Part shown: piece after piece, positions 22,548 to 64,000 of the stretch
Numbering within the stretch: the stretch's first letter is position 1
How the letters are laid out: each line of letters opens with the position of its first letter
IMG/VR virus record: IMGVR_UViG_3300009108_000480
Reading direction: 5' to 3' (one strand)
Length of the DNA stretch: 64,000 nt
DNA from: a virus
Taxonomy: Duplodnaviria; Caudoviricetes
Notes under the pieces: model-generated
What the model was told of the DNA's origin: nothing
What the model saw: the letters and a program-made list of their open reading frames with translations, nothing else
Database searches by the model: none
Program-made: the position numbers and the translations under genes

Positions 22548-23297
22548 TTAATATCCTGTGTTGCTACCTGCCGTTGTTCCACTTACAGTATTTGATGTGC
22601 TTATTGCAGTTGAACTCGTTTCAGTAAATGTTGTTAATGATTGTATTCTTAAAGTATAATCAATTTGAATTAATCTGTTTAATGATTTTTGTACTGGGTG
22701 AAATATAACGTGTGTTAATAATTTATTTGTTGAACCATTTTCTGTTCCTTCCCAACTTTTTAATCCTAATTCATCAAACACATAATCGCCATTAAAATTT
22801 GTTGTATTGTCAAATGCTGATTGCCCTGTTGGCTCTCCATAATCTAACGTGCAAGTACAAACTATATCAGTATATTTGTTTCCTGCTGTGTGTCGTACTT
22901 CCATTTTATTTCTTGTTGTATCTTTATTAGTAGATGAATTATCATCTACTACTTTATAATATGTTTGATTATATAATGTTGCACTTGTACCTGTGCTATT
23001 TGGCGTTAAGTAAGTTATAATTCCTGTTGGATCTACTGAAGTACCCCCATTACCAAAAGCCATTTCATGTACAAATCCTGTTGTTTTATTTGCTAATGAA
23101 TTTGCTAATGCCTGAGACATATTTTCATAATGAATAGCATTACTTTTATCCACTATTACTTCACCGGTTTCTGGATCAAATATTTTAATATGTCCAGTCA
23201 TCATGACTCCGCTATGATCTTGTGGCTTTTTATTTTCTTCTATATGCTCGTTTTGTTTAGATTCTTCAGTCATCTTATTGTATTTATTCAGGTGCAT
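22548..23297 (-). CDS. Baseplate/virion structural protein
   Basis: GHIKIFD...NAIHYENMS...FDELGL...THVIFHPVQKSLNR; directly follows the giant wedge gene. Confidence 0.65.
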   Translation of the reverse strand: MHLNKYNKMTEESKQNEHIEENKKPQDHSGVMMTGHIKIFDPETGEVIVDKSNAIHYENMSQALANSLANKTTGFVHEMAFGNGGTSVDPTGIITYLTPNSTGTSATLYNQTYYKVVDDNSSTNKDTTRNKMEVRHTAGNKYTDIVCTCTLDYGEPTGQSAFDNTTNFNGDYVFDELGLKSWEGTENGSTNKLLTHVIFHPVQKSLNRLIQIDYTLRIQSLTTFTETSSTAISTSNTVSGTTAGSNTGY

Positions 23298-26200: not shown

Positions 26201-29200
26201 AATGTTGTTGTTGACCCATCCCCTCTGAAAACATCTGTTGTTAATGTTCCTGCAACATATATTTGATAAACTTCAGTTGTTGCTGGTGCTGTTGTAAATG
26301 TAAATGCAACTGTACTACCATCTCCATAAAATGTTTTAATTTTTGATGTACCATAATGATCCCACGCATAATCATACCAACCCGATTTATCCCATCCTTG
26401 ACCTTGTGTAAACAATAAGCCTGTAACCATTGTGCCACCATAATCTACTCCAGTCATTAATTGTGATAATTCATTTCCTGGCATTCCTGACGCTGGTGTA
26501 TAAAACCCTTTTGTTCTATCCGCCGCACTTAATCCTGTTTCGTCTCCATATACTTTGTATACATTTCCATCGTTGTCATCAAAATCTGTTGTTGCAGTAA
26601 AAGCCGATGTTGCTTTATACAATTGATTTTTATATCTAATTAAATCTCCATATGCATAACTGGATAATGCTGTCCAATCTTGTACTCGTGATGTAGATGA
26701 TATTCTATCAAATTTAACTGTTGTACTAAAATCTCTTACAAGATCATTTCCTAAATTTGCATATGCTTTAGCTTGATCTGTAGGATTTGTACCATCCACT
26801 AAACCACCTGAAATTATTACTGTTGGTGTTGATGTATAATTTGCTCCAATTCCGGTTACTGTAATTGCTGACACCGACCCATTCTTAACAATTGCCGTGG
26901 CAGTTGCCGCAGTTGTGTCGGGTGTTGTATACATTTTATACGTTGCTGATTTTATTAATTGTGCATATGTTACATACGAAGTTGGTTGATAAAACGTGCC
27001 CGAATAACTGTCAAATGTAAATTGTCTTGACGTTCCTGTTCCACCATTTTGTGTATCAGCAATATTAGATTGTAATTCTGTTGTATAAAGTGGATAATAA
27101 TATCCCAATGATCCTGCACTTGCACCTGATGCCGCTGTATCATAAATTTGGAACGGTCCTGTACTGCCTGTGGTTCCACCTAATATTGTTACTGTTGGAA
27201 CTGCTGTATATCCTGAACCTCCGTTAGTTACAGTAATTGAAGCAACGTGTTTTTTATAATATTCACTCCAAAATTTATGAGGATATTCAGTTTGTTTAGT
27301 AGCATCACCTAGTACATTTAAATTTCTTATTGTTCCGGTTGTTGCATCATAAAAAGGAGGATTATCAAAATCAGTATTAATTCCATCTTCAGTATCTGTA
27401 CCTGTATAACCTAATTTGTATTCTCTCAATTTTGTATGGAAAGGTTTAACTTCATTTATATAAGATTCAATCCAAGCATCTGTTCCTGTTGTATAAGTTT
27501 TTCGTTGATCTAAAGTTCTTACAGAATTTCTTGCATTAATAAAAGATGTTTTAAACATCCAATCTACATAAGTTTGTTCTGACAATACTCGTTTTAATCC
27601 AATAAAAAATAATGTATTGTATTCTACTGCTAATTCATTTATAAACAAATCATCTCTTAATGCTGTTAATATTTTTCTAGTTTCTATTGCAGGTTCTTGA
27701 TCAAAGAAGTTATCATCAAAATTATCTGCATCTGCAAATCCTGTTGCATCTTGCGTATAATCATAAAGTTTTGTTGATAATCTAAGTGTACCATTTTCTG
27801 TTGCAACATTTTCCCACCCAGTACTGGTTTTCATGAATATTTTCCAACCACCGGTATCTGCGGATGTAACTTTTACGTGTTTACCTGTTGCTAAAGTTAA
27901 TGCGTCTAATTCATATTGATACGTTACTTGCTTATCTATTGATGTATTTTCATCATGAACCATAGTGCCTGTCGTTTTATACCAATCAATGTAAGACCAA
28001 TAATTTTTTGTATTAAATGTTTGTACTTTGGTTCGTGACCATGTTGATCCATCCCATTTATATATTGACCAATAGCCATTTACTGTTTCGTCTGCTTCAA
28101 CAAGATAATTTAAAGTACCACTTAAATCTCTTGTATCAATATATGTTAGTTCAGCATATGTGGCAACTTTAGCGTCCCATTCTAAACTTTCAGCTGTTGG
28201 TTCTGGATCTTCTGAATTTAAATTATCTAAATTTATTGTTCCCGAAAGTTCATTAACTTTTAAAATTGAATTAGCATAATCTATTATTTCTTTTAATGCA
28301 TTAAATCTATTAACATACCAAGATTGTCGTGGTCTTATATTATTTCCATATTTTTCATTTACAGGTAAATTTATATCCGGTACAATATCTCCTATTAAAT
28401 TTGAACCTATTAATGAATCCCACCAACGTGTTTCTATTTGTGTTCCTGGACGATAAAATTTATCTCCTTCACGTACTAATTTCCATATTGAATGTGCTCC
28501 TCCTTCAAATGTATTTGTTCTTGTGTCAACATTTAAAATAACTTCATCATTTGAAAGATCTTGTTTTGCACCAAATACTAACATTTTGTTTACATCAGTA
28601 ATTGAATAATGTCTAATATCTGAATTTAAAGGATTCAAAATTATATTGCTTATATAAGAAGCAGTATTTTTTCTTACAACTACTGAATTTGTTGGCATTG
28701 ATTGTTTATTTCTTACCCAATAATAATAATAATTTACAAAACCATCGAGTGCTGAATTATATATTTGTTTAACGGTGTAATGTGAATTGTCTGGATGTAA
28801 CGGTATTCCTGATATACCTTGTGAGGATCCTGGTGTTGTTCCTGCTAAATCATTCCACTCATGTGGCAACATTGTTGATTCGGTCCATTCATAAATGTCA
28901 ATCGAAGATCCCGGAAATACTTTACCCCAGTTATTAATTTTAAATTCTTGATCTCCTTGTTCATACCATAACCATTTAACTTTAGATAAATCCCACCATA
29001 TTTCTCCAATATGGTCTTCGGCCCATGCAACTTTTTCTTTAGGATTTGTACCAGCATTATATGACGCTGGATCCCAAGTAGTTTTAATATTAATTTCTCT
29101 ATCTGCTATTCCTAAAATTCTTCCTTTAACTGGATCATATAAATCAAAATAATTTAAAATTTGTTTACTATTTTTATTAAAATGAAAAACCTGTCCTAAT

Positions 29201-32200
29201 TTATTAATGTCTATTAATGCAGTTTCTGATGAAATTTCTTTCCAAGCGTATGTGTCATTAGTTGTTAAGTCAAAACAAGTAACTGTTCCGTCATTACTAA
29301 CCATTGAACTTCCGTCTGCAGATGTGTTACCTTCATCTTCTGGTGCACCAACAAAAACTGTTTGATCAATAACACAAACACCTCTACCAAAATCATCATT
29401 TGCTGATACACTTGTTGTAACTAATATATCATCTATTACAAATTTTGTATTATACATAGTAGCGGTATATGCCGCACCTGATCCTAAATTTTCATCAATA
29501 AATCTTGTATCTTGTAAATCAAATGTTGTTTCTCCCAAATCAAATTTTTGTTCTCTATGATTTGACATTTTTTCTGCACCAATTACTAATCTTGTTCCTG
29601 TATCGTTTATATCTACTGTACTACCAAATTTTGAATTAGTTTGTTCGTCTGGTGCTTTTATAGTTTGTTGCAAAGTATATGTGTTTGTAGATCCGTCTGC
29701 ATTCCATTTATAATAATAGATAGCACCTACATCTGCTTGGCTACTATCATCAAATCCTGGAGCACCAACTACTAAAACTGTGCCATCTTTAGTCATTGTT
29801 AATGACTCTCCAAATTGAGTATTCAACGAAGAACCGTCTGCTGTTGTACCTGTCAATGTTTGTGCAAGAGCAAATGAATGACTTGTACTATCATCACTTG
29901 ATTGTGATATTCTTGTATAAATTTCTACTTTTCCTGCCTGCCCTGGTGCTTTAGAACTAACAGCAAGTATATCACCATTATCATTTGCTTGTAGTCGATG
30001 ACCAAATCTTTTATTCTCACCTGGGTCAGAAGATGTTATTGTTAAATTTTGTGTCCATGTATCATATGTTGATAAATCTTCTCCTATACCCCATTCATAC
30101 ATATAAACTGCACCTGCATTTGTACCTACTCCTGGTGCTGAAACAAATAGATATTTTACTGGTGTGCTTCTTACTGAACTTGCTCCTGGTTCACAAATTT
30201 TATGTGCCCAGCCAAAGTTTTGCGATGCCGCATCAGTTGGTGGTAATTTTGTAACTAATGGATCATATTTGAAGGTTGATGTATTCCATAAAAATATTTT
30301 AATTAAACCTGCATCTGAAAATCTTGTACTTCCGTCTGAACCAAGAGAATTGGCATAAGGTCCACCTGCTACAACAAAGTTTTCGTCGGTACTCATTGAT
30401 AATGAACTACCTAATCTACTTGTATTATCACTACCAGAAGTTGTTGTTACAGCTGATTGTGTTAAAAATGTTGTTCCTGCTGTACTTTCTCTTCTAAATA
30501 AAAAGTGTACTGTACCTTGGCCTTTTGTTGGCGATGATATAATAACTGATCGACCATCATTCCTTGCTACTATTTGATATCCAAAATCTTGTTCTGCTGT
30601 TGTGTCTGGTGAAAGCATTCTAATTTGCGTGTATGGATCTTGCTTTTCATAAACACGCCACAATCCAGATGCATCTGCATCTGCAAAAACTTTATCACCT
30701 TCTTTTGATATACTATCATTTAAATCATTATAAACATTATAAGATAACACATCATTAACATTGTCCATTGATGCTAATCTTACAGATATAAATTTGTAAA
30801 TATTACCATATGAATCTGCTGTTGACCCATCTTCTAATGGTGTGAAGGTTGAAATTTCAGAAATAGTGTCTGTATAATCTACAATCACAGTTTTATGAGT
30901 TGGTGCCGACTGAACAGTATAAACTCCATTTAATTCTACAGTTTTAGAATTTGTTATTGCAAAATAATCTGCCATTGTTGTTGAACTGCCTGCTACTAGA
31001 TCATGTGAACTGGTAAATGTAATTTCTAATTGTGTATTACCATTAATTGGTTTTAATTGTGCAATTTTATATCCTGACAACGTTAAACGAAATACGTCCC
31101 AATCGTTATTAGTTTTATTTGCTACCCAAATTAAATCATTTGAGCTAGTTAAGGTAAGATCCAACTCTAAAAGATCTTCTATGTTATATGCTGTACGTTG
31201 TACTTGATTTAATTGTGGATAACCTGCATTTGGAAGAACTTGTACTGTATCTCTATCTACCCCTTCTGTAGCATAACTATATCTTGAAAACGTTGTACTG
31301 GCTATATATTCAACTGGCTTACTATATAAATTATTTTTATCAACATAAACAGATCTAGCATACTGTTGTGTCTCATTTGACGTATCAAATAATTCAATAC
31401 TTTGTGAATTCGCTGTAAACTCGTCATCATCTAACACAATTTGAATACTTTCTTTTAAATCTGTGTTTCCAATTTTACCTGTACGAATCATCCATTCTGG
31501 ATATAAATCTAAAGATATATTTTGTCCTTCGTATTTTGCTTTTAATAACTTATCAATAGCATTTTGCGTACCTTTTTCTTGAATATATCCTTGATAAAAT
31601 TTATATTGTGAAATATCATTAACAAAAAGATTTTCTAAGTAATCTCTTGATTGGTATCCAATTAAATGTTGTGCCAATCCTTGCTGTGATTCATCAAAAT
31701 TATTTGATTCTAAACTATAAAAATCATTAAACCGTGAAATTTTATAATCAAAATTTGGAATTAATTGTAATTTAGGCTTTTCCGATTTTTGTATCCAACT
31801 TTCATTAACAAAAGTCGTGCTTGAATTATGATTTATTTTTGCAACATAAAATTTTCCTTGATACTCTACTGTGTCACCAATTTTATAATCTGTATTTTTT
31901 AACCAATATGTTACCTGTGCCGCATCAAACATAAACCCTGGAGCATGATAATCACCAGTCCAGTTGCTTGTTTTCCATCCTACTAATTTTAATCTTGCTT
32001 GACGATATCCAGTATATGGTTCATATATAATATCAGAGAACACTGTTGTATTATCAAACAATAATATATGTTCTTTTTGAACTGTGTTTAATGCTATATT
32101 ATAAAGTCCAATATCAGGATCTTTAATCGAAATTTCAAAATTCTTCCCTAACCTTTTAGTACTAACATTTACAATATCAATTTTTCTTCCACCTGCATCT

Positions 32201-35200
32201 AACAAAGAATAATCTCCTGCTAGGTTTTTTAATTTTCCAACAATTGAATTCTCTGTGTTAAGCTGAAATCCGTTTGCTCCTGGAGATATTGTAATTGCTG
32301 AACCCGGTGCCCAAGGTTGCGTTGTCCAAAATAAAAATTCTTTAACTGACAATCTCCAATTTAATACTTCTTTTATTTCATTTGAAAATTTATCATAAAC
32401 AAAACCTTTAGATTCTAACCATTTTCCATATCCCATTAAAAAATCTACAACTTGTTGAATTGTATCAAATACATGACCATATGGAATAACTTGTGTTGTT
32501 GTTTGATAATTCTGATAAATTATTGCTTCTGCATCTGATACAATAACTTTTTGACCTGTTATGCTTTTTATAGGATAATAAAAATTAAAATATGGTTTTG
32601 TAGTAGAATATCCTAATACTTTCCACCCACCTAATAATGTTGATCCATCAATTGATGTGTCTGTATTCTTTTCAATTAACACTCCTGAATAATTAAAACT
32701 GTTTACAGGATTTGACGTTCTAAATAATATTTTATAGTTTTCATCTGGTATAAATTTAGAACCTGATGTTGATCCTGGTGAAACTGAATCAGTTAAAACT
32801 TTTATATTTTCTTTATCAGTAAAGCCACCTAACTTATAAGCTAATTGAATATCTAATTGTTTTAATTTATTATAAAAGAAAGTTAATGGATCTAGATTTT
32901 TAAATATTAAATAATTTACTACAAATGGTTGATATCCCGCTGTTGTATATCTTGTTACAACTCCTGTTTGAATATTTGTAGAAGTTTCTAAATGATAGTT
33001 TGCTGTACTTAATTGTTGTATAATATTTGTATCTTTACTAATTAAATTATTTGAAATATTTTTAGTTAATCTACTATTATCAAAAAATAAATTAAAAAAT
33101 TTCGCTGGTTTAGTAAGAGCCAATGTTTTTATTACAGAAAAAGGATATGCACTTGATCTTCTCCAACTAGTTTCTGCTGGACCTTGGTCTCCAAACTTCC
33201 ATGCTTGGTTTCTGTTTGGCACATCAAATGTATTAATTAATTTTGCGGCGATCGGATCTAATAAATTTCCTGACGTATCTACTGGAATATATGATGCAAT
33301 ACTTGATTTACCATATCTACCTAAATGCCCTGCAACTGCGTCCCATAGTATTGTGTTACCTGATGTATATGGTGCCAAACCATATGTACTTTCCCAAGTA
33401 CTAGGTTTTTCTGAATATCCTAATATCTCCCACGGTCTTATATGTGGACTATCTGTATCATAAAAATATTTGTATATGCCTCTCCAGTGGCCTGGCAATT
33501 TAGCATCGTTTATTCTATCTGTTGATGCTGAATAATTATATGTAAACGGTGATCCTTCAACAAACGTTGTATTATTAATATATTGCACACCATTTCTGCC
33601 TGCCCATATATAAAAATCCGAACCCATTACATCATTTATTTCTGTTAATGTATATTCTGTTGACTTAAATGCTGACGGAACAACATCACCTATATCTAAT
33701 AATGTAGAATCATATTGTGTTTTAATATTATTATAAATTCTTTTTTCAAGTTCTAATATTAAATTGTCTCTTTCGTCTCCGTATGCTTTAATAAATGAAC
33801 CGTCGTGTTTTCTAATCATAGTTTGACTTATAAGATAAGTGTCGTCTGTAAATAATTCGGGTTTAAATTTTGGATACAATCCTAATTTAGTTGGTGTTGG
33901 AGGAATAAAACTTCCAGTTGTATCACTGTAATCTCTAATTTTAATAATATCTCCTGCAACAAGTGTAGATATGATATTAATACTATCATCGGTTGTACTA
34001 ACAGTATATTCTGTACCTAAAATCAACTGTACATCATTTTTATAAACATATACCGCTCTATTATTTGTTTCAGTCATTGTATGCACTGAATCAATTGCAT
34101 ATTCAGTTTCAGATGCATCTTGTACAGTATAAGTTCTTAATGAATAATTTTCTCCTACTCCAATCATATCTTCATAAAAGAAAGGAAATGTTGACCCACG
34201 TCCTTGATTTATTGCTATAATGATTTCATCAACTCTATCCGCGGCAATCCCTTCATATGCTGTACCAAGTCCATATGTTAAAAATGAATTATAAAATTTT
34301 TCATACTCTTGATTACAATAATCTATTGCAATTAATACATTTGCTTCTTGGTCTATTAATCCAAATACAGCAGGTAATAATGTTCCTTCGTGCTGAACTA
34401 TTAATCCTCCATTCAACGTTGCATCAGGATTATCTCTGAGCGATGAAGAACCTGGTATACTTCCTGTTATATCTGTATTCTTATCAAAAATATCTTTTAC
34501 GTGTCCAAGTATCTGTCCATATGTAAATGTACCTTTTTGTATATTCAATGGATTAACAGATAAATTTTCTGGTATTTGGTATATACCTTTATTTGAAACT
34601 TTTTTAGTTGCTGAATATCCTACTAATTTAATTTGATCATCTACTTTTAATTCTTTTACAAATTGAATATATTTGTTTACTGTTCCATTAACTATTGTAT
34701 AATCTGTTGTTAAATTTTTTCTTATACCATTTACAGTTACTGAAATTTCTAAATCAGTAAGAGAAATAGAATTTTTATAAAAATCAATTTGAAACAATTG
34801 TTTTTCTGTTTTGTCTACTATAAATGTTCTAACTACTCGTTGTTTACTTTCGTTGGTTCTTTTTACCCAAGCACTTTTTGAATTATGTGTTGTTAGACTA
34901 GTAGTATAATGCAAATGACCTTCAGAAAGATTTTTAGTTATAATATTATTATCCGTTCTATATGTAAATGTTCCTGCTGTATGATCTGATTCAAAAACTA
35001 TATCACCAATATTATTAATTGTATTATATTTTACTTTTATACCTAATACTGTATCTGTAGTTGCTGTTGTTGACGTTTTATAAGCAAAAACATTTGCTCC
35101 ACTAAAAGTCGAATTTGGATACGTTGTTGTATCATCAAATGATATATGATCATTATCCCACATACCAAACAGCGGTGCTTGATTTACTTTAATTTTTGTC

Positions 35201-36897
35201 TGCCCTGTTTTCCAAGTAGTTGTTGACTTATCATAATAATAAGTTTTACCTTGGTTTGCTGTTCCAAATTCAATAAAAATTGATTCGTTATCTGCAGGTA
35301 CGGCATCTGTAGCTTCGGTAAGATTAATTACTGACGTTGAGTCTCCGGCTTGTACAAAATTAATTACGTAAATTTTATTTTTTACAAGTGTATCGGTGTC
35401 TGCAGAAAATACTACTCTCATTCCATCTGCTACTGCTAATCCATCTATAATATAACCTGTTTGTGCAACTACATTAGAAAATGCATCAGTTGTAACTGTG
35501 TCAAATAATGTTACAGATGTTTTTGCCACAGTACCATGATTATATAAAGCAAGTCCCGAATCAAATTCTATAATTGGCCTTTTAGCTCTATCAGTTTCTA
35601 ATAAATTAGGTGTATAACCATTAGCATCTGCTGTTTCGTCAATTACAGATTTATGAAACCATCTATTATATCTTGACCAAGCATTTTGGTCTCTTGAATC
35701 TCTTTTAATTGTAATATAATCTTTTGTTTCCGGACGATAAAATGCTTTTGCATAAGGTCTAGAATCATACGCAATACTATCAAATAAAATAGTTGTTTCT
35801 GTAGCATATGATTCGGGAGTTATTAAATCTTCTATATTTGTAAATGTAATTGAATCTCCAACTCCTTCAACATAATATTCTTTACCTGCATATGTGCTAT
35901 CAGTAACATTAGATTCAAATTTAATTTTCATTCCATTTGATAAATTTAATGTTCTTAACGCATAATTTTTTGTACCTAAAATATCATTAGCAACGTCAAT
36001 TTTTGTTGTTGAACTTATCGTTCCAACAGTAAAAATTCCATACATACTATCATGATTGCCACATTGATAATAAAGTACATCTGGTGCCGTAGTTGGTACT
36101 GTAAAAGTAACTATACCCGAATCTGTTGCTGGGTTTATTACACCTGTTGTATATAAAGTAGAAGTTGATCCATCTTCTGCAACACCTTGACGATATGGTT
36201 CTGTCATTATATGGAATGGATGGCCTTTTGCGTCTACTTTAAATTTATAAGTATTACCTCTATATAATTTTATTTGAGGATTTCTTTCACTTTCTTTTGT
36301 TCCAAACTTCCATGCTCTTGTCGTACTTCCATCATCTGGCCATGCTGTTACATCAATTTCAACTAACGCCGTTGGTCCTACTGAATCTAATGTTATAGAA
36401 TTTGGACCTTCGGGCAACCAATAATATTCTCTATAATTGATTAACTTATCTAAATCAATGGCCGGGTTCCAAGAGTATATAACTTCTTTGTTTAGTCTAT
36501 CATGATTATCTACATTACCTCCAAAATATTTTATTTGATTAATATAATCATCATAGGTACCTGAAAATTTTACTTGGTCTTCTGGATTAACTGATGTTGT
36601 GTCTTTATCTGTGTAAGTTACTGCAGGCTCTAATTGATATGCCATTCTATCTCTATTAGTTGCAGACAGATATGTGTCAGTTATTTGTCTTGTATAAGCA
36701 TCTTGTCTACCAATATATCCATCTAATCTTTGTAATGCACCTTTTTGAATTAATGGATCAATAGTACTTGATAAAAATCTTGTGTTGCTATCTGTTCTAT
36801 AGAATACAGGTAAGTGTGCGATTGATCTGCGTAACTCAATTCCATCTTGAGTTACAACTTCTTGAACTGATTGTGAATTGGTTGCTTTATCTACCAT
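23284..36897 (-). CDS. Giant (4537 aa) baseplate wedge/fibre scaffold protein
   Basis: Directly downstream of the gp6-like gene; YINEVKPFHTKLRE wedge-type motif; carries cupredoxin-like, FG-GAP propeller, GDGST repeat and NNDGTK propeller modules. Confidence 0.8.
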   Translation of the reverse strand: MVDKATNSQSVQEVVTQDGIELRRSIAHLPVFYRTDSNTRFLSSTIDPLIQKGALQRLDGYIGRQDAYTRQITDTYLSATNRDRMAYQLEPAVTYTDKDTTSVNPEDQVKFSGTYDDYINQIKYFGGNVDNHDRLNKEVIYSWNPAIDLDKLINYREYYWLPEGPNSITLDSVGPTALVEIDVTAWPDDGSTTRAWKFGTKESERNPQIKLYRGNTYKFKVDAKGHPFHIMTEPYRQGVAEDGSTSTLYTTGVINPATDSGIVTFTVPTTAPDVLYYQCGNHDSMYGIFTVGTISSTTKIDVANDILGTKNYALRTLNLSNGMKIKFESNVTDSTYAGKEYYVEGVGDSITFTNIEDLITPESYATETTILFDSIAYDSRPYAKAFYRPETKDYITIKRDSRDQNAWSRYNRWFHKSVIDETADANGYTPNLLETDRAKRPIIEFDSGLALYNHGTVAKTSVTLFDTVTTDAFSNVVAQTGYIIDGLAVADGMRVVFSADTDTLVKNKIYVINFVQAGDSTSVINLTEATDAVPADNESIFIEFGTANQGKTYYYDKSTTTWKTGQTKIKVNQAPLFGMWDNDHISFDDTTTYPNSTFSGANVFAYKTSTTATTDTVLGIKVKYNTINNIGDIVFESDHTAGTFTYRTDNNIITKNLSEGHLHYTTSLTTHNSKSAWVKRTNESKQRVVRTFIVDKTEKQLFQIDFYKNSISLTDLEISVTVNGIRKNLTTDYTIVNGTVNKYIQFVKELKVDDQIKLVGYSATKKVSNKGIYQIPENLSVNPLNIQKGTFTYGQILGHVKDIFDKNTDITGSIPGSSSLRDNPDATLNGGLIVQHEGTLLPAVFGLIDQEANVLIAIDYCNQEYEKFYNSFLTYGLGTAYEGIAADRVDEIIIAINQGRGSTFPFFYEDMIGVGENYSLRTYTVQDASETEYAIDSVHTMTETNNRAVYVYKNDVQLILGTEYTVSTTDDSINIISTLVAGDIIKIRDYSDTTGSFIPPTPTKLGLYPKFKPELFTDDTYLISQTMIRKHDGSFIKAYGDERDNLILELEKRIYNNIKTQYDSTLLDIGDVVPSAFKSTEYTLTEINDVMGSDFYIWAGRNGVQYINNTTFVEGSPFTYNYSASTDRINDAKLPGHWRGIYKYFYDTDSPHIRPWEILGYSEKPSTWESTYGLAPYTSGNTILWDAVAGHLGRYGKSSIASYIPVDTSGNLLDPIAAKLINTFDVPNRNQAWKFGDQGPAETSWRRSSAYPFSVIKTLALTKPAKFFNLFFDNSRLTKNISNNLISKDTNIIQQLSTANYHLETSTNIQTGVVTRYTTAGYQPFVVNYLIFKNLDPLTFFYNKLKQLDIQLAYKLGGFTDKENIKVLTDSVSPGSTSGSKFIPDENYKILFRTSNPVNSFNYSGVLIEKNTDTSIDGSTLLGGWKVLGYSTTKPYFNFYYPIKSITGQKVIVSDAEAIIYQNYQTTTQVIPYGHVFDTIQQVVDFLMGYGKWLESKGFVYDKFSNEIKEVLNWRLSVKEFLFWTTQPWAPGSAITISPGANGFQLNTENSIVGKLKNLAGDYSLLDAGGRKIDIVNVSTKRLGKNFEISIKDPDIGLYNIALNTVQKEHILLFDNTTVFSDIIYEPYTGYRQARLKLVGWKTSNWTGDYHAPGFMFDAAQVTYWLKNTDYKIGDTVEYQGKFYVAKINHNSSTTFVNESWIQKSEKPKLQLIPNFDYKISRFNDFYSLESNNFDESQQGLAQHLIGYQSRDYLENLFVNDISQYKFYQGYIQEKGTQNAIDKLLKAKYEGQNISLDLYPEWMIRTGKIGNTDLKESIQIVLDDDEFTANSQSIELFDTSNETQQYARSVYVDKNNLYSKPVEYIASTTFSRYSYATEGVDRDTVQVLPNAGYPQLNQVQRTAYNIEDLLELDLTLTSSNDLIWVANKTNNDWDVFRLTLSGYKIAQLKPINGNTQLEITFTSSHDLVAGSSTTMADYFAITNSKTVELNGVYTVQSAPTHKTVIVDYTDTISEISTFTPLEDGSTADSYGNIYKFISVRLASMDNVNDVLSYNVYNDLNDSISKEGDKVFADADASGLWRVYEKQDPYTQIRMLSPDTTAEQDFGYQIVARNDGRSVIISSPTKGQGTVHFLFRRESTAGTTFLTQSAVTTTSGSDNTSRLGSSLSMSTDENFVVAGGPYANSLGSDGSTRFSDAGLIKIFLWNTSTFKYDPLVTKLPPTDAASQNFGWAHKICEPGASSVRSTPVKYLFVSAPGVGTNAGAVYMYEWGIGEDLSTYDTWTQNLTITSSDPGENKRFGHRLQANDNGDILAVSSKAPGQAGKVEIYTRISQSSDDSTSHSFALAQTLTGTTADGSSLNTQFGESLTMTKDGTVLVVGAPGFDDSSQADVGAIYYYKWNADGSTNTYTLQQTIKAPDEQTNSKFGSTVDINDTGTRLVIGAEKMSNHREQKFDLGETTFDLQDTRFIDENLGSGAAYTATMYNTKFVIDDILVTTSVSANDDFGRGVCVIDQTVFVGAPEDEGNTSADGSSMVSNDGTVTCFDLTTNDTYAWKEISSETALIDINKLGQVFHFNKNSKQILNYFDLYDPVKGRILGIADREINIKTTWDPASYNAGTNPKEKVAWAEDHIGEIWWDLSKVKWLWYEQGDQEFKINNWGKVFPGSSIDIYEWTESTMLPHEWNDLAGTTPGSSQGISGIPLHPDNSHYTVKQIYNSALDGFVNYYYYWVRNKQSMPTNSVVVRKNTASYISNIILNPLNSDIRHYSITDVNKMLVFGAKQDLSNDEVILNVDTRTNTFEGGAHSIWKLVREGDKFYRPGTQIETRWWDSLIGSNLIGDIVPDINLPVNEKYGNNIRPRQSWYVNRFNALKEIIDYANSILKVNELSGTINLDNLNSEDPEPTAESLEWDAKVATYAELTYIDTRDLSGTLNYLVEADETVNGYWSIYKWDGSTWSRTKVQTFNTKNYWSYIDWYKTTGTMVHDENTSIDKQVTYQYELDALTLATGKHVKVTSADTGGWKIFMKTSTGWENVATENGTLRLSTKLYDYTQDATGFADADNFDDNFFDQEPAIETRKILTALRDDLFINELAVEYNTLFFIGLKRVLSEQTYVDWMFKTSFINARNSVRTLDQRKTYTTGTDAWIESYINEVKPFHTKLREYKLGYTGTDTEDGINTDFDNPPFYDATTGTIRNLNVLGDATKQTEYPHKFWSEYYKKHVASITVTNGGSGYTAVPTVTILGGTTGSTGPFQIYDTAASGASAGSLGYYYPLYTTELQSNIADTQNGGTGTSRQFTFDSYSGTFYQPTSYVTYAQLIKSATYKMYTTPDTTAATATAIVKNGSVSAITVTGIGANYTSTPTVIISGGLVDGTNPTDQAKAYANLGNDLVRDFSTTVKFDRISSTSRVQDWTALSSYAYGDLIRYKNQLYKATSAFTATTDFDDNDGNVYKVYGDETGLSAADRTKGFYTPASGMPGNELSQLMTGVDYGGTMVTGLLFTQGQGWDKSGWYDYAWDHYGTSKIKTFYGDGSTVAFTFTTAPATTEVYQIYVAGTLTTDVFRGDGSTTTFTLSSAPADGAVIKFILFDDDGVLTPTDDRTLDSIVKGGLFNSALGTSPSDILLEGDEFVSPDTSYAPEEAVPGQMFDTVDIKVYTSPESGAPFITTKNYTGNGSTTAFSTGEYPGTLASVIVSVDGVTKKITTDYTINVANKTVTFGSAPANNSIISIRTFAISGENYRVLDTYTGDGSTVAYTTSTRENFNLDSSNSQIYITINGVPTTAYTTTSLAKSIIVTFDSAPAANAYVQVAGFNQTSATRAYAQIMSGTITYDGSTTRHTLTYPPGAIGPYSGLTLVEVNGKMLRGPDNTYYLGDGSTYNYGVVTGLEDDSTVDPSKTISAESDVQVFVNGVQKLLNTDYTVNIGAQTISMVTAPTVTDVIAISTLVDNHYYNEGNDIILIPSRITSPYSLSSSDVITVTTFNNALGTKLRREVLEGRSTGIFALRFDPLNAGYTTVWLNGTQLIKDHDYTLTGNIVTVVGKTITASDRLDVLYFALGSAVGATGFRIFKDMLNRTFYKRISKTSTTEIANDITPESSTIQVKDGTKLPEVTGTTPGVIFVDKERIEYFVKNGDTLSQLRRGTLGTGIKEHSSGVEVVDASGIQTIPYADTVYTDTHTGDGSTVGFTTTQALTSASQLDIFIGGQRLLLTSEDGSTINYSIGGFTNISSATFVRASTSLNSTDNDVRDVKWNNDGTKMFMLGRANDSVYEYSASTAFDVSTITYVRLLDIGVVSATQGDDAANSIEFNTDGTKLFVLGQGQDKVDEYALSTSFDLSTASFTHSFSVASQELLPYGLAFNNDGTKMFVTGWAGDDINEYTLSTGFDVSTATYSQNFSVSAQAGKPSAVQFNNTGTKMYVLNGTGAPTIFQYTLITAFDISTASYENTSFSTLTEEANPRGFCFNNDGSQLFVCGFTGDDINEYTCNAGIILSSPPADGTQVKILHKKGQVWYTGADGNPSNGQGLQASTTQQANFIAGEPTNAPE

Positions 36898-47079: not shown

Positions 47080-48060
47080 ATGAAACGAGTGAAATATTTA
47101 AATAACCGAGATCTGTTGGCCCAAATACACGCCAGCAAAAATACATTTTGTTCTTATGTTACAGATGAGGACTCACAATACGATATAATTGTACCTGATC
47201 TTAAAAAAATTAATTCTATCGCAATAGCAAAAGCAAGAAAAAACAAAAGTAAAAGATTAACACAAGAAGCATGGCAACAAGCTAAAGATAGCGGACTTAA
47301 AAAAATTAAATTAAGTGACTACACTGTAAACACTCGTAAAATTGATAAAACTAGTTTAGTATTTAGAGTTATGACATTTGGTCATGTTCCTTTAGATCCT
47401 ACTAGAAAGAAAAATCCTAAACAAGAATCTGATCATCATCAAAAAGTAAATTTTCCTCCGTTCCTTCATTATCGTCTTGATAATAAAGGTAAACCAAAAT
47501 GCGTAGGTAAATCACATTGGATTGGTGGATTAGAAAACGGACATTTTGATTGCAATCATGGAAAAATTACAAACAGTCTAGCAATGATGTTTATGAAACT
47601 TTGCGAAAGATATGGTACTAGAGCAAACTGGAGAGGATATACCTACAATGATGAAATGCAATCACAAGCATTGATGCAATTATCACAAATTGGTTTACAG
47701 TTTGATGAAAGCAAATCAGAAAATCCATTTGCATATTATACAGCGGCAATTACAAATTCATTTACAAGAATATTAAACATTGAAAAGAAAAACCAAAATA
47801 TACGTGACGACATTCTTGAGCAACATCATATGACGCCTTCGTCTACTCGACAAAATATTAATACATCTAATACAATGGCTTATAAAAAACATATAACAAC
47901 TGCACACGGACCGGTTAAAACTGTAAACAAAACTGGAATAATGAAATTAAACAAATTAATGCGTAAAAAAGGAGAATTAACACTTAAAGATTTTGATTCA
48001 GTAGGATACAAAAAAATAGATATGAGTAAACATAAACCACCAATAAAGAAAAAATACTAA
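47080..48060 (+). CDS. gp55: Late-transcription sigma factor, T4 gp55-like
   Basis: YLNNRDLL N-terminus; NWRGYTYNDEM...FDESKSENPFAYYT..I.NSF.R.LN.EKK motif. Confidence 0.88.
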   Translation: MKRVKYLNNRDLLAQIHASKNTFCSYVTDEDSQYDIIVPDLKKINSIAIAKARKNKSKRLTQEAWQQAKDSGLKKIKLSDYTVNTRKIDKTSLVFRVMTFGHVPLDPTRKKNPKQESDHHQKVNFPPFLHYRLDNKGKPKCVGKSHWIGGLENGHFDCNHGKITNSLAMMFMKLCERYGTRANWRGYTYNDEMQSQALMQLSQIGLQFDESKSENPFAYYTAAITNSFTRILNIEKKNQNIRDDILEQHHMTPSSTRQNINTSNTMAYKKHITTAHGPVKTVNKTGIMKLNKLMRKKGELTLKDFDSVGYKKIDMSKHKPPIKKKY

Positions 48061-48155
48061 TGAAATTTTTTAAAAAAATAAAAGAATATCTATGTAAAAT
48101 ATACAATAAATGTATCGATTGGTATTATTTAAAAATTTGGAGTAAATTTAAATGA
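48060..48155 (+). CDS. 31-aa peptide MKFFKKIKEYLCKIYNKCIDWYYLKIWSKFK
   Basis: Manual translation. TAATG overlap with the gp55 stop and ATGA overlap with the gp47 start; fills the intergenic gap exactly. Confidence 0.65.
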   Translation: MKFFKKIKEYLCKIYNKCIDWYYLKIWSKFK

Positions 48156-49174
48156 CATTTTTTAATAAGGTGGCTTGTTTTACAGATATACACTTTGGAT
48201 TAAAAGGTAATTCACGTGTACACAATGATGATTGTGAAGCATTTATTTATTGGTTTATTCAACAAGCTAAAGCACACAATTGTGAAACGTGTATATTTCT
48301 AGGTGACTGGCATCATCATAGATCTGCAACTAACGTTTCAACAATGAATTATACAGTATCTAATGTTGAACGATTAGCAAAAGCATTTAAAAACTTTTAT
48401 TTTATAAATGGTAATCATGATTTATTTTATAGAGATAAAAGAGAAATTAATTCAGTAGAATATATTAGAAATATTCCTAATGTCCATATAGTAAACGAAT
48501 GGATTGTAAAAGAAGATATTGCAATTATTCCATGGATAGTACAAGACGAATGGAAAAAAATTCAAACAATGCAAAAAAAATATATATTTGGACACTTTGA
48601 ACTTCCATATTTTAAAATGAACGCAATGGTAGATATGCCCGACATTGGCACAATTAAAACCGAACACTTTGCTAATTGTGAAAAAGTATTTTCAGGACAC
48701 TTCCATAAAAGACAGTACAACAAAAATGTAACTTACATTGGTAATACGTTTCCACACAATTACGCAGATGCTTGGGATGATGAACGTGGTATGATGATAC
48801 TAGAATGGGGTGGAGAACCAAAATATATTAATTGGCCAGATATGCCAAGATATAGAACAATTAAAATATCTGAACTCCTTGCTGATCCTGACACTGTATT
48901 AAAACCAAAAATGTATGTAAGAGTTACATTAGATATTAAAATATCTTACGAAGAAGCAAACTTTATACGAGAAACGTTTATAGACAAGTATGAATTAAGA
49001 GAATTACAATTAATACCAGAACAAATCGACAGGGCACAACAACCTTTGGTACAAGTACAAAAATTTGATTCAGTTGATCAAATTGTGTTAAAACAATTAG
49101 AAGGTGTTGATTCCGAAACATATGACAAATCAATTTTAATGGCAATTTATAATAATTTAGATGTTAATAATTAA
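48152..49174 (+). CDS. gp47: Recombination endonuclease subunit, Mre11/SbcD-like
   Basis: FTDIHFG, LGDWHH, GNHD, GHFE and SGHFH metallophosphoesterase motifs. Confidence 0.95.
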   Translation: MTFFNKVACFTDIHFGLKGNSRVHNDDCEAFIYWFIQQAKAHNCETCIFLGDWHHHRSATNVSTMNYTVSNVERLAKAFKNFYFINGNHDLFYRDKREINSVEYIRNIPNVHIVNEWIVKEDIAIIPWIVQDEWKKIQTMQKKYIFGHFELPYFKMNAMVDMPDIGTIKTEHFANCEKVFSGHFHKRQYNKNVTYIGNTFPHNYADAWDDERGMMILEWGGEPKYINWPDMPRYRTIKISELLADPDTVLKPKMYVRVTLDIKISYEEANFIRETFIDKYELRELQLIPEQIDRAQQPLVQVQKFDSVDQIVLKQLEGVDSETYDKSILMAIYNNLDVNN

Positions 49175-50936
49175 AGATCTTACAGTAAAAAATTTCATGA
49201 GCGTGGGTAATGCTATCCAGGCAATAAAATTTGATAACAAACACTTGATTCTAGTACTTGGTGAAAACATGGATTTGGGTGGCGACGATGCTGGTGCAAG
49301 AAACGGTACTGGTAAAACTACAATTATTAATGCATTATCTTATGTATTTTTTGGTGAAGCACTAACTCATATTAAAAGAGACAATCTTGTTAATAAAACC
49401 AATAACAAAGATATGATGGTTTCTATAAACTTTGTAAAAAATAATGTAACCTATACAATTGAACGTGGACGAAAACCTCAAATATTAAAATTTTATGCAA
49501 ATAATATTGAACAAAATGTAGATTCAAACGAGGCACAAGGAGAAAATAAAGAAACACAAAAAGAAATAAACAGATTACTTGGTATGACTCATGCTATGTT
49601 TAAAAACATAATTGCGTTAAACACATATACACAACCATTTCTTGCAACTAAACAAGCAGAACAAAGAGAAATTATTGAACAATTGCTTGGTATAACTTTA
49701 TTAAGTCAAAAAGCTGACTTACTTAAAGAACAACAAAAAGCAACTAAAACAGAATTATCCGAAGAAAAAATTAAAATTGATTCGCAAATTGCATCTAATG
49801 AAAAAATACAAGAATCAATTGAATCATTAAAAATAAGAAGTAATGCTTGGCAAACACAAAAAGAGGAAGATAAAACAGGTTTTTCAAAAGCAATTGCAGA
49901 ACTTGAAAAAGTTGATATTAATAAAGAACTAAATGCACACAAAAAACTTGCAAAACATACTGATGATGTAAAAACACTAAGAAGTTTGGAAAAAGAAAAA
50001 GCATATCATGAAGATTCTTTAACTAAAGCACAAACACAAGTTGAAAAAACTGAAAAGGACATTGAATTTGCCAACGATGCTAAATGTCCAACGTGTGGAC
50101 AAGATCTACGTGATGACAAACACAAACATTTAGTAAATGAACTAAATTCTACACTAACTGAATCAAAACAATATGCGGAAAAACTAAAAAGTGATCTTGT
50201 AAATGTGCAACAAAATGTTACTGCAATAGGAGATCTTGGTATTATACCTGACACATATTACGACACCATTGATGAAGCATATAATCATAAAAGTTCTTTA
50301 TCAGATTTAAAAAGACAACTAAAACAAACAGAAACTAAACACGATCCTTACGAAGAACAAATTATTGAATTAAACAAAAGTGCTATTCAGAAAATTAGTT
50401 ATGTAAAAGTAAACGAAATGGAAGACTTATATAAACACCAAGACTTTTTATATAAATTGTTAACTGCAAAAGATTCGTTTATAAGAACAAGAATTATTGA
50501 ACAAAACTTAACTTATTTGAACCAACGATTAGCATATTATTTAGGACAGGTAAGATTACCACATACAGTTACTTTCCAAAGTGACTTAACTGTACAAATA
50601 GAAGAATTAGGTAGAGAATTAGACTTTGACAATTTAAGTAGAGGCGAAAGAAACAGATTAATATTAAGTTTAAGTTGGGCATTTAGAGATGTTTGGGAAA
50701 GCCTTTATCAACAGATCAACTTATTGTTTATTGACGAACTTGTAGACGCCGGTATGGATATATCTGGTGTTGAATCAGCCATGGCAGTATTAAAAGACAT
50801 GAGCAGAACACAACAAAAGAATATTTTCTTAATATCTCATAAAGATGAACTGATTTCTAGGGTAGATTCAGTACTAAAAGTGGTAAAAGAAAATGGTTTT
50901 ACCAGTTATGCTAATGATGTTGAAATAATTGTTTAG
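49161..50936 (+). CDS. gp46: Recombination ATPase, Rad50/SbcC-like
   Basis: NGTGKTT Walker A, CPTC zinc hook, LSRGE signature, FIDE Walker B, ISH. Confidence 0.95.
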   Translation: MLIIKDLTVKNFMSVGNAIQAIKFDNKHLILVLGENMDLGGDDAGARNGTGKTTIINALSYVFFGEALTHIKRDNLVNKTNNKDMMVSINFVKNNVTYTIERGRKPQILKFYANNIEQNVDSNEAQGENKETQKEINRLLGMTHAMFKNIIALNTYTQPFLATKQAEQREIIEQLLGITLLSQKADLLKEQQKATKTELSEEKIKIDSQIASNEKIQESIESLKIRSNAWQTQKEEDKTGFSKAIAELEKVDINKELNAHKKLAKHTDDVKTLRSLEKEKAYHEDSLTKAQTQVEKTEKDIEFANDAKCPTCGQDLRDDKHKHLVNELNSTLTESKQYAEKLKSDLVNVQQNVTAIGDLGIIPDTYYDTIDEAYNHKSSLSDLKRQLKQTETKHDPYEEQIIELNKSAIQKISYVKVNEMEDLYKHQDFLYKLLTAKDSFIRTRIIEQNLTYLNQRLAYYLGQVRLPHTVTFQSDLTVQIEELGRELDFDNLSRGERNRLILSLSWAFRDVWESLYQQINLLFIDELVDAGMDISGVESAMAVLKDMSRTQQKNIFLISHKDELISRVDSVLKVVKENGFTSYANDVEIIV

Positions 50937-51695: not shown

Positions 51696-51739
51696 ATTTA
51701 AAACTCGTAAAGATTGACAAGATTTTTATTTCTATGCTA

Positions 51740-52225
51740 TATAGTAGTGATGGGCAACAGCATCCATCCACTAGGCAAATCATATCTACTTTATATAAAA
51801 CAGCATTGAGGTCGCATCTTGCGATCAGATCTTGCTTGTAGAAAAAGGCAATGATGGGGCTATGAGAAAAAGCACCCCCAGGTTTGTGTGAGATTATCGT
51901 ATAAAGATTACACAAATTCGCGTTGGAAAGAACGAGCTAATGGGTACAGCACAACCGCCCAGTTACGACAGCGATATACGGTGACTATAAACTCAGCACA
52001 TGGGTAAGTCGTTCTGCTAGAGATAGCAGAACTATGACTAACATCTAGCACATAGGACGCATATTGCGTTTATTTTTAGAGCATAGCGTAAATTAGAAAT
52101 AAACTGAGCGTAGCGAAAGTTTAGATGGCTGTAAGCCATCTTTAATGAATGGAATCGCCGGGAACAATGATTACAGCTGAAAAGCCAACCCCCGGCTCTA
52201 TACTTTTTGCCTGCGAATTCCATTG
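51740..52225 (+). ncRNA. Candidate large structured non-coding element (ncRNA or ssDNA-structured origin)
   Basis: No credible ORF; GC-richer than its flanks; at least 8 stems including GTTCTGCTA-GAGA-TAGCAGAAC, AGATGGCT-GTA-AGCCATCT and GCT-GAAA-AGC. Confidence 0.55.
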
Positions 52226-52242
52226 TAGATACTTATTGTGAA

Positions 52243-52569
52243 TTATTCTTCGTCTTCTTCTTTAGACTCGTCTTTAGTTTCTTCTATTGTACCGTGAGTT
52301 GTAATATACTTTTCTATTTCTTCATCAATTTCTTTTTTAACAACTTTATTTTTATCTTTAAGTTTTTCTTTTAATATTGTAATTTCTTTATTTTGTTCTT
52401 CTATTTTTTTTCCTATACTACTAACATCTGACGTTGCGTGTTCTAATTTAATCATAACAGTTTTAATTCGAGACTCTTTTTGTTTAATAGTCTTAAGGAG
52501 GTCCTCTTTCTCATCAGAGAGGTCCTTAATTGTAGATTTGAGCTCTTGAATAAGATCTCGTTCAGACAT
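52243..52569 (-). CDS. Coiled-coil hypothetical protein
   Basis: 108 aa, K/E-rich heptad pattern. Confidence 0.75.
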   Translation of the reverse strand: MSERDLIQELKSTIKDLSDEKEDLLKTIKQKESRIKTVMIKLEHATSDVSSIGKKIEEQNKEITILKEKLKDKNKVVKKEIDEEIEKYITTHGTIEETKDESKEEDEE

Positions 52570-63790: not shown

Positions 63791-63872
63791 CAGTTCAAAC
63801 AGAGCTCCACTCAAGTGGAGACTTATGCGGAATTAACCGCGTAGCGAGTAGAACTCGCATTAGGCTCTGAAC
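63791..63872 (+). ncRNA. Candidate structured 5' leader (multi-stem junction)
   Basis: Three hairpins closed by CAGAGC/GCTCTG immediately before an AGGAG Shine-Dalgarno. Confidence 0.5.
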
Positions 63873-63884
63873 AGGAGAAAACAA

Positions 63885-64000
63885 ATGGGAAGACCAATCA
63901 AAAAAAGTAAATTTGTATCAAGTTTTGGTGGCACAACAGCGGCTAAAATTGCAGTAACTGGATATCGACCAAGTGGTGGATCTTTAGTTAGCTCATCTAT
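63885..64000 (+). CDS. Virion protein, 3'-truncated (MGRPIKKSKFVS...)
   Basis: AGGAG Shine-Dalgarno; ORF open to the window end. Confidence 0.65.
   Translation, partial: MGRPIKKSKFVSSFGGTTAAKIAVTGYRPSGGSLVSSS

Follow-up and report, generated by a model that had tools for sequence, protein, structure and literature searches.

The viral record IMGVR_UViG_3300009108_000480 (IMG/VR) supplied the stretch of 64,000 nucleotides (nt) analysed here, referred to below as the window; its source is an uncultured marine T4-like phage, and marine metagenome DNA runs contain the stretch. The closest cultured relatives of this phage are PA5oct-type jumbo phages, with which it shares 48% identity in gp46. 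In its second half the window carries the genes for the late sigma factor gp55, for gp47 and gp46, for a small Hc1-like basic protein and for a GIY-YIG nuclease of the SegE type, followed by the element that is the subject of this report, a gene for a 108-aa coiled-coil protein and, past that, the baseplate hub gene (− strand), the portal gene and the major capsid gene (Table 1). A first-pass annotation had marked about 480 nt beside the nuclease gene as a densely folded element. This structured unit is real, but the part that is conserved is shorter, about 400 nt (51746-52143), and ends with a hairpin, H9, whose last base is at 52141. We conclude that 51746-52143 on the + strand is almost certainly a single-copy gene for a conserved, strand-specific and highly structured non-coding RNA of no known family.

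Folding, base composition and coding potential agree with this conclusion. The + strand of 51730-52235 folds with a predicted energy of −139.8 kcal/mol (z = −3.3), a value equalled by none of 100 shuffled sequences, whereas the − strand of the same stretch is no better than its shuffles (z = −0.8). Many of the conserved pairs are G·U pairs on the + strand (e.g., 51945-51957, in all sequences), which on the − strand would be C·A and could not form. The proposal that the element works as a + strand RNA, originally based on the reading of GNRA loops on that strand, is thus upheld both by these loops and G·U pairs, which occur on the + strand only, and by the difference in folding. The G+C content is 0.40-0.45 in the element as opposed to 0.25-0.33 in its flanks, and from the GIY-YIG gene to position 52207 the + strand has no open reading frame (ORF) that reaches 40 aa. 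A short frame opening with AUG-AUG at 51852 was considered as a coding sequence and rejected, as it runs for four codons before a stop in the window and for about 33 codons in the related locus L020, and the frame is not conserved. A promoter-like signal stands directly in front of the element, and a block consisting of AAAGATTGAC(A/C) and a TATA-rich −10 region is kept in the relatives of clade A (see below); a simple promoter scan skipped the signal because its −10 hexamer ends in A. Four marine metatranscriptome studies contributed contigs of 162-259 nt (identity of at least 95% in three of them and lower in the fourth), which cover 51773-52049 at low depth and give a weak hint of transcription.

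A search with gp46 yielded 80 related IMG/VR loci, and in about 35 of these BLASTN aligned 51850-52143 at 68-87% identity, with the promoter block at 51709-51779 also conserved. Further loci were added by a scan for the invariant loop motif, after which nhmmer gave 118 hits. A covariance model restricted to the RNA core (model R1, 139 positions) matched 81 loci strongly; it also gave 18 more loci, 16 more distant (26-48 bits), including a clade in which gp46 is only 55-58% identical. Homologues were found at 133 marine phage loci in total, of which nhmmer contributed 118 and model R1 a further 15 that are more distant, and these loci fall into four clades (A to D); this count includes some second fetches of one contig, and 71 of the loci have distinct module regions. 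The RNA locus always lies between gp46 and the baseplate hub gene, and there is a single match in the window and in each of three large related phage records with a match. The RNA is therefore a single-copy feature of a broad marine phage clade.

The predicted structure is kept by compensatory change across these relatives. RNAalifold predicted 74 pairs from 26 sequences, and 34 of these show compensatory changes. The core, aligned by the model with 76 distinct sequences, has standard pairs in 97.6% of the cells, and 18 of the 24 pairs have changed on both sides; the covariation score is 0.606 compared with 0.235 after shuffling, none of 500 shuffles reached the observed score, and pairing fell to 30-57% when the partners were slid as a control. 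Covariation among syntenic relatives, the check that the first-pass annotation had proposed for its element, is thus strong. Two tertiary pairings, the pseudoknots PK1 and PK2, came from a covariation scan of all column pairs. PK1 is paired in 97.5% of the cells, 78 of which are changed on both sides, and was matched by none of 500 shuffles (slid controls, 7-66%). PK2 is paired in 94.7% of the cells and was likewise matched by none of 500 shuffles; its compensated variants (GUUGU/ACAAC, GUCAG/CUGAC and GUUUG/CAAAC) occur in few sequences, and the window itself has a G·A mismatch at 51926-51951. As a whole, the fold combines a 5′ domain with eight or nine helices that covary, two or more pseudoknots and a large number of unpaired bases that do not vary.

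Seven of the eight sets of stems that had been listed from the letters of the window are present and kept by compensatory changes, and the remaining one has no counterpart in relatives. The 5′ stem proposed at 51745-51773 corresponds to the hairpin at 51746-51772, which occurs in a subset of the relatives with compensated stem variants (GAUGG/CCAUC versus GAAGG/CCUUC). The stem TGGGG/CCCCA (51855-51880) belongs to helix H2, in which GC, AU and UA exchange and 99-100% of the cells are paired, and the stem TTTGTGT/ACACAAA (51883-51916) to H3, in which 12 of 13 pairs show changes on both sides. Only part of the stem drawn from TAATGGG at about 51938-51965 survives: GGGU/GCCC pairs within 51941-51961, but the wider TAAT/GTTA extension is replaced by 51962-63 with 51968-69 and 51936-37 with 51971-72. 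The loop of this H5 hairpin, UACAGCACAACCG, is near-invariant. The hairpin AGTC-GTTCTGCTA(GAGA)TAGCAGAAC-GACT (52007-52039) was recovered as H6, with UA/AU and GC/UA exchanges, and in clade D its lower stem covaries to CAUA/UAUG. The hairpins read as AAACT/AGTTT (52101-52122) and AGATGGCT(GTA)AGCCATCT (52123-52141) are H8 and H9; they covary in all clades, including lineages that have no same-strand gene downstream. Loops are GNRA in most relatives, and the GTA triloops of the window are local variants of the tetraloops GUAA, GCAA and GAAG.

Between H6 and H8 lies H7, which in the window resembles a terminator; its counterpart in clades B-D, frequently capped by a UUCG loop, is a hairpin that lacks the U tract. 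H7 is probably not a complete stop, because covariation of H8 and H9, which follow it, is seen in every clade, because the U tract is missing in clades B-D, and because H8 and H9 are kept where there is no downstream gene. The stems at 52148-52224, which are the set without a counterpart, fold at z = −2.2 on the + strand and −0.9 on the − strand, and in most relatives a + strand gene starts here; these last 77 nt are probably a terminator region between convergent units. At the other end, the branched 5′ domain is closed in relatives by GCAUC/GAUGC and has covarying inner pairs, and the version in the window is divergent. The unpaired 5′ part carries the motif AGGCA or AGGCU in two or three copies in all clades (51752-51779 in the window), and these copies could be a protein-binding repeat.

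Table 1. Genes, signals and RNA elements around the RNA gene; positions are those of the window except for the last two rows, which refer to the related locus L020.
Feature	Position	Strand	Remarks
Late sigma factor gp55 gene	47080-48060		
gp47 and gp46 genes	48152-50936		
Hc1-like basic protein gene, 63 aa	51014-51205	+	Homologue of chlamydial histone H1-like protein Hc1 (PF07432, E = 4e-12)
SegE-type GIY-YIG gene, 150 aa	51243-51695	−	PF19835, E = 5e-36; divergent from RNA gene
Promoter-like signal	51714-51743	+	TTGACA 51714-51719, 18-nt spacer, TATATA 51738-51743; read directly from the sequence
RNA gene	51746-52143	+	About 400 nt
5′ hairpin	51746-51772	+	GGCAAC loop; RNAfold; in a subset of relatives only
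Second AGGCAAA motif	51773-51779	+	Follows the 5′ hairpin
5′ domain	51784-51842	+	Putative outer helix UCUAC 51785-89 with GUAGA 51838-42, read by eye
Inner hairpin of 5′ domain	51810-51826	+	GGTCGCA(TCT)TGCGATC; local fold
Invariant AAUGAUG, then H2	51850-51880	+	51855-59 with 51876-80; inner pairs 51863-64 with 51873-74
Long hairpin H3	51881-51918	+	51881-91 with 51908-18; 51894-95 with 51904-05; loop CGUAU is a strand of PK1
Pseudoknot PK1	51898-51980	+	H3 loop 51898-51902 with 51976-51980
Pseudoknot PK2	51922-51955	+	GUUGG 51922-26 with near-invariant H5 loop ACAAC 51951-55
H5 junction	51936-51972	+	51936-37 with 51971-72; hairpin 51941-45 with 51957-61; mini-hairpin 51962-63 with 51968-69
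Module 1	51981-52005	+	Handle GTGACTA 51981-87, flank CTC, box AGCACAT 51995-52001; local hairpin ACUC-box-GGGU
Hairpin H6	52007-52039	+	AGUC/GACU lower stem, 9-bp upper stem, GAGA (GNRA) loop
Module 2	52035-52053	+	Handle TGACTA 52035-40, flank TCT, box AGCACAT 52047-53
Hairpin H7	52055-52077	+	Hairpin 52055-52071, U-rich tail; terminator-like
Hairpin H8	52101-52122	+	52101-05 with 52118-22; inside, near-invariant GAGCG-loop-GCGAA
Hairpin H9	52123-52141	+	52123-30 with 52134-41
Nested hairpin	52148-52224		Outside the conserved RNA, between RNA gene and 108-aa gene; no counterpart in relatives
108-aa coiled-coil gene	52243-52569	−	Convergent with RNA gene
ATE_C-like gene	L020:7027-7797	+	
196-aa gene	L020:7739-8329	−	Weak DUF6875 match

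The most unusual part of the RNA was revealed by column pairs that change identically rather than complementarily, and consists of two direct-repeat modules that flank the GNRA-capped hairpin H6. Each module is made of a handle (GUGACU...) and a box of 7-10 nt, and the GACU of the second handle doubles as a strand of the H6 lower stem. The modules are identical within every genome and different between genomes. The distance from box to box is 52 nt in the window, 50-61 nt in relatives (counted in rows where both boxes were caught) and 54-61 nt in clade A. In this clade the boxes hold an invariant ACA and a variable triplet (ACC, AGC, AGU, GCC, ACU or GGU), and the triplet is the same in both boxes in 50 of 50 sequences; on a tree built without the module columns it has changed at least eight times, always in both copies and with no intermediate state. 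The boxes of clades B-D are entirely different (AACGUGAUG, AACAUGAUG, ACAUGAU, GAAUGAU, AGAUGAU, AGAUAAU, AGAUGAG, GGAUAAUG and GGUGAAG), again with both copies the same. The handles also change in concert, being GTGACTGC, ATGACTGC, ATGACTAC, GTGACTGT or GTGACTA, but the 4-5 nt that separate handle from box differ between the two copies in all clades. That this short stretch stays different favours selection over gene conversion as the cause of the likeness of the modules.

A search for complements of the boxes gave none inside the RNA, even with G·U pairs allowed, none at a consistent place in the 4-14 kb of local DNA and none above chance level in the 64-kb window. Either handle offers a GACU with which the AGUC at the 5′ side of H6 can pair, and the local folds differ in this respect, with one state predicted in the window and the other in L020. 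Several readings of the modules were tried and rejected. A reading as codons or T-box specifiers suits the boxes of clade A, which fit the pattern NNY followed by A, but not those of clades B-D; one as box C/D or K-turn motifs would need UGAUGA, which is present in clades B-D only; and a ribosome hop of the T4 gene 60 type lacks a reading frame. A CRISPR mini-array was likewise rejected, since the middle 4-5 nt of the modules always differ and the supposed spacer is a conserved hairpin with compensatory changes.

The RNA matched no family to which we compared it. None of the 4227 models of Rfam 15 (which include RNase P, tmRNA, 6S, group I and group II introns, T-box, GOLLD, ROOL, HEARO and OLE) scored at the gathering level in 51700-52250; at E ≤ 10 there were only two chance-level matches, one of 15.4 bits (cut-off 35) and one of 12 bits (cut-off 50). 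ARAGORN found no tRNA or tmRNA in the whole window. The earlier suggestion of a novel large non-coding RNA that resembles no tRNA, tmRNA, RNase P or group I core is borne out by these empty searches and by the strong covariation. A group I intron with a homing endonuclease was rejected because there is no exon context and no Rfam match, and the GIY-YIG gene is not enclosed by the RNA and is encoded on the opposite strand in the window. A BLASTN search of 50,697 phage records with the element gave no match, and no described counterpart was found in the searchable literature. The element has the general properties of a structured non-coding RNA gene, with compensatory changes beyond those of controls, strand specificity and no coding capacity. 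It belongs to none of the families considered, and we rate it as a new class of structured RNA. Among its nearest counterparts, which are analogues only, are GOLLD and ROOL, which are also multi-domain RNAs of several hundred nt with pseudoknots, carried by phages as G+C-rich islands in A+T-rich DNA, and which were also found by comparative analysis and are, like the present RNA, of unknown function. The present RNA differs from them in matching neither Rfam model and in its smaller size (about 400 nt), and we know of no description of twin modules that change in concert for either.

Beyond the marine phages, the invariant loop motif was scanned for in 185,579 prokaryote genomes, and among the 120 matches listed there was no real homologue; these were chance matches in G+C-rich genomes, with one marginal nhmmer hit (13.8 bits, E = 0.003). 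In the cultured phage PA5oct (L321, NC_071039), the syntenic stretch (8190-9230, at about 75.8-76.9 kb of the record) is gene-poor, with ORFs of 117-153 nt only, and has a G+C content of 0.38-0.41 as compared with 0.25-0.32. Within the syntenic 1.5 kb, AAGGAUGUUGCUCUGGUAGAAAAAGAUCAAC resembles the invariant motif of H2, and there is a weak match (14.4 bits, E = 0.015; nhmmer E = 0.0012). [quoted passage not shown] The RNA may have a very remote homologue in this cultured phage.

A nearly constant companion of the RNA is the GIY-YIG nuclease gene, which adjoins it in almost all clades, divergently in clades A and B and co-directionally in clades C and D and in the lineage L120. It is separated by other genes or not nearby in eight lineages (L023, L173, L027, L004, L048, L084, L098 and L106). 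The protein consists of the catalytic domain only, without a DNA-binding domain of its own, and is about as conserved as the core genes (57-81% identity versus 50-81% for gp46); no solved structure matches it by sequence. A homologue with 57% identity is found among the small early genes of the Methylophilales phage Melnitz, and model R1 found nothing in the whole Melnitz genome. Judged by this homologue, the nuclease is not dependent in general on the RNA. The link between the two that the first-pass annotation had put forward as speculative may or may not exist: the genes stay close neighbours in spite of flips in orientation, but the Melnitz homologue occurs without the RNA. Homologues also occur in more than 500 phage records, mostly of cyanophages, which lay outside the RNA scan; those of cyanophages are often annotated as NAD synthetase, apparently wrongly.

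On the other side of the RNA, about 40 of the 62 loci examined have a gene of 241-281 aa that starts 18-25 nt after H9 on the same strand and is followed by a gene of 196 aa. ATE_C is matched by three of 14 members of the 241-281 aa family (best E = 2.6e-11), and either it or a FemAB-like GNAT domain is present in related Atlas clusters; by these domain matches the protein is a homologue of aminoacyl-tRNA-dependent transferases. The pair of genes is missing from the window and several lineages, where a gene on the opposite strand lies downstream of the RNA and H8 and H9 are still kept, and in clade B2 it is upstream and divergent. Other observations concern the wider neighbourhood. In clades A and B, gp46 and the GIY-YIG gene are separated by the 63-aa Hc1-like gene. 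A full-length match to the Rfam freshwater-2 RNA (RF02980; 74 bits versus a cut-off of 49.9) occupies 63805-63887 (+), downstream of the major capsid gene region. A run of large ORFs on the − strand spans most of 1-46946 and includes a single ORF of 4537 aa (23284-36897) followed by one of 1160 aa.

One rival explanation is a cis-acting leader, a riboswitch-like or T-box-like element for the ATE_C-like gene in which H7 and its U tract would be a regulated terminator. Where that gene begins so soon after H9 there is no room for a promoter of its own, the association survives rearrangements in clades B and C and in L106, and as in T-box and other terminator-coupled leaders a long structured RNA precedes an aminoacyl-tRNA-linked gene in most relatives; in addition, RNAalifold pairs GCGU (51920-23) with ACGC in the 5′ arm of H7 in the manner of an anti-terminator. 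However, that pairing is invariant, never covaries and overlaps the covarying PK2, the Rfam T-box model does not match, and the U tract is confined as described above. The window and the lineages without the gene keep every helix, including those past the putative terminator, and with the gene absent, on the opposite strand or, in clade B2, divergent, we rejected membership among terminator-coupled riboswitches or T-boxes and consider a leader for this one gene improbable. We think it less probable still that the RNA is a partner, guide or regulator of the GIY-YIG nuclease with target specificity provided by the twin boxes. The boxes do behave like programmable segments, and a conserved scaffold with short, freely varying segments and an adjacent nuclease gene recalls HEARO, the omega RNA of IscB, and the bridge RNA of IS110. 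The locus nevertheless contains no IscB, TnpB or IS110 gene, the neighbour is a lone GIY-YIG domain whose Melnitz homologue does without the RNA, and the variable segments of bridge RNAs are not identical to each other as the two here are. Two identical guides could not address both strands of one DNA site, and because the whole region is syntenic, adjacency is weak evidence; the eight lineages with the gene displaced and the many homologues in phages also count against it.

Two further possibilities take the repetition itself as the key. The RNA could process itself as a ribozyme, with the modules as sites of cleavage or ligation that release or rearrange the H6 segment, and ribozymes typically share its size, its pseudoknots and its wealth of unpaired bases that do not vary; the symmetrical placing of identical modules around a stable hairpin also speaks for such sites. 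We regard this too as an improbable explanation, given that no ribozyme or intron family of Rfam matches, that there is no internal guide complementary to the boxes, and that no joined or shortened forms were seen in the metatranscriptome contigs, a search of low power. Alternatively, the RNA could be a template on which a polymerase jumps between the modules and produces tandem repeats. The pseudoknotted non-coding RNA of DRT2 is a template for rolling-circle reverse transcription in which two matched and essential motifs that abut a stem-loop, ACA-1 and ACA-2, let the nascent complementary DNA re-anneal (PMC11100668). The present RNA likewise has two identical short motifs next to a stem-loop, with an invariant ACA in clade A, and selection that keeps motifs identical, not complementary, is the mark expected of a nascent copy that re-anneals. 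The motifs of DRT2 are of 3 nt as compared with 7-10 nt plus a handle here, and DRT2 is a bacterial defence locus whereas this RNA is borne by phages. A search for a reverse transcriptase (PF00078) gave none, either nearby or in five related phage records, which are incomplete genomes of 73-197 kb; the segment between the boxes is only a structured hairpin with TAG and TGA in different frames; its length is not constant modulo 3, so that a stop-free repeat ORF is not possible; and the metatranscriptome contigs contain no tandem-repeat joints. A template of this kind is thus very unlikely. The alternative offered by the first-pass annotation, a DNA replication origin built from stable hairpins, has still less in its favour. 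It was suggested by the GTA triloops of the window, which are closed by G-C pairs and had been taken for d(GNA) mini-hairpins, and by the position of the element at a switch in gene orientation. In relatives the triloops are GNRA tetraloops, both pseudoknots covary, the conserved G·U pairs and the fold belong to one strand only, and a conserved promoter-like signal lies ahead. We consider such a hairpin-based origin extremely improbable. An R-loop origin of the T4 type (oriF, oriG) would combine a promoter with a DNA-unwinding element and would require no conserved RNA fold; a promoter-like signal is present here, and the region behind it is G+C-rich instead of A+T-rich and under selection for RNA pairing.

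Overall, we find it fairly probable that the locus is a structured non-coding RNA gene whose product is a free RNA with docking modules. The RNA would work as free RNA or as a ribonucleoprotein and not as the leader of one particular gene, because the whole fold is kept while the downstream gene varies between lineages. It would act in trans, with the twin modules as two equivalent docking sites for one outside partner. This part of the account is the more tentative one, somewhat less likely than not, and derives from the evolutionary pattern, namely that the modules are identical within a genome, drift between genomes and pair with nothing inside the RNA. The partner would most simply be a nucleic acid recognised by base pairing and, with less likelihood, a dimeric protein. 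Switching of AGUC between the handles would toggle the RNA between two nearly equal states that expose one module or the other. Several points weigh against this account. The search for complements of the boxes in the RNA and in local DNA turned up no partner, which contributes to our caution about the docking sites; the toggle, which may exist, is read from local minimum-energy folds; gene conversion could in principle keep the modules alike, although we hold this unlikely; a co-oriented gene begins 18-25 nt after the RNA in most relatives, where a leader role is possible; and the metatranscriptome evidence consists of contigs only, which could reflect DNA carry-over.

A bolder version of the docking-module account, in which the modules are programmable specificity elements of a new RNA machine, appears unlikely to us. 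Such a machine might be an RNA with two states that offers one guide in two copies and cooperates with the GIY-YIG nuclease. Alternatively, the RNA might move a strand bound at one module on to the second, in the manner of a programmed template jump or strand transfer. If true, either would be a phage-borne RNA-directed system without a described counterpart.

Large, intricately folded and deeply conserved RNAs are rare, and to our knowledge nearly all such classes with a known function are ribozymes, cores of ribonucleoproteins or guides. The alignments and the covariance model suffice to begin structure probing, cryo-electron microscopy and binding studies without a cultured host. Modules that are identical within each genome and free to vary between genomes are an unusual evolutionary signature, which suggests either recognition of sequence in an outside partner or a step of copying and re-annealing in these marine phages, and swapping of the boxes offers a direct experimental handle on both.

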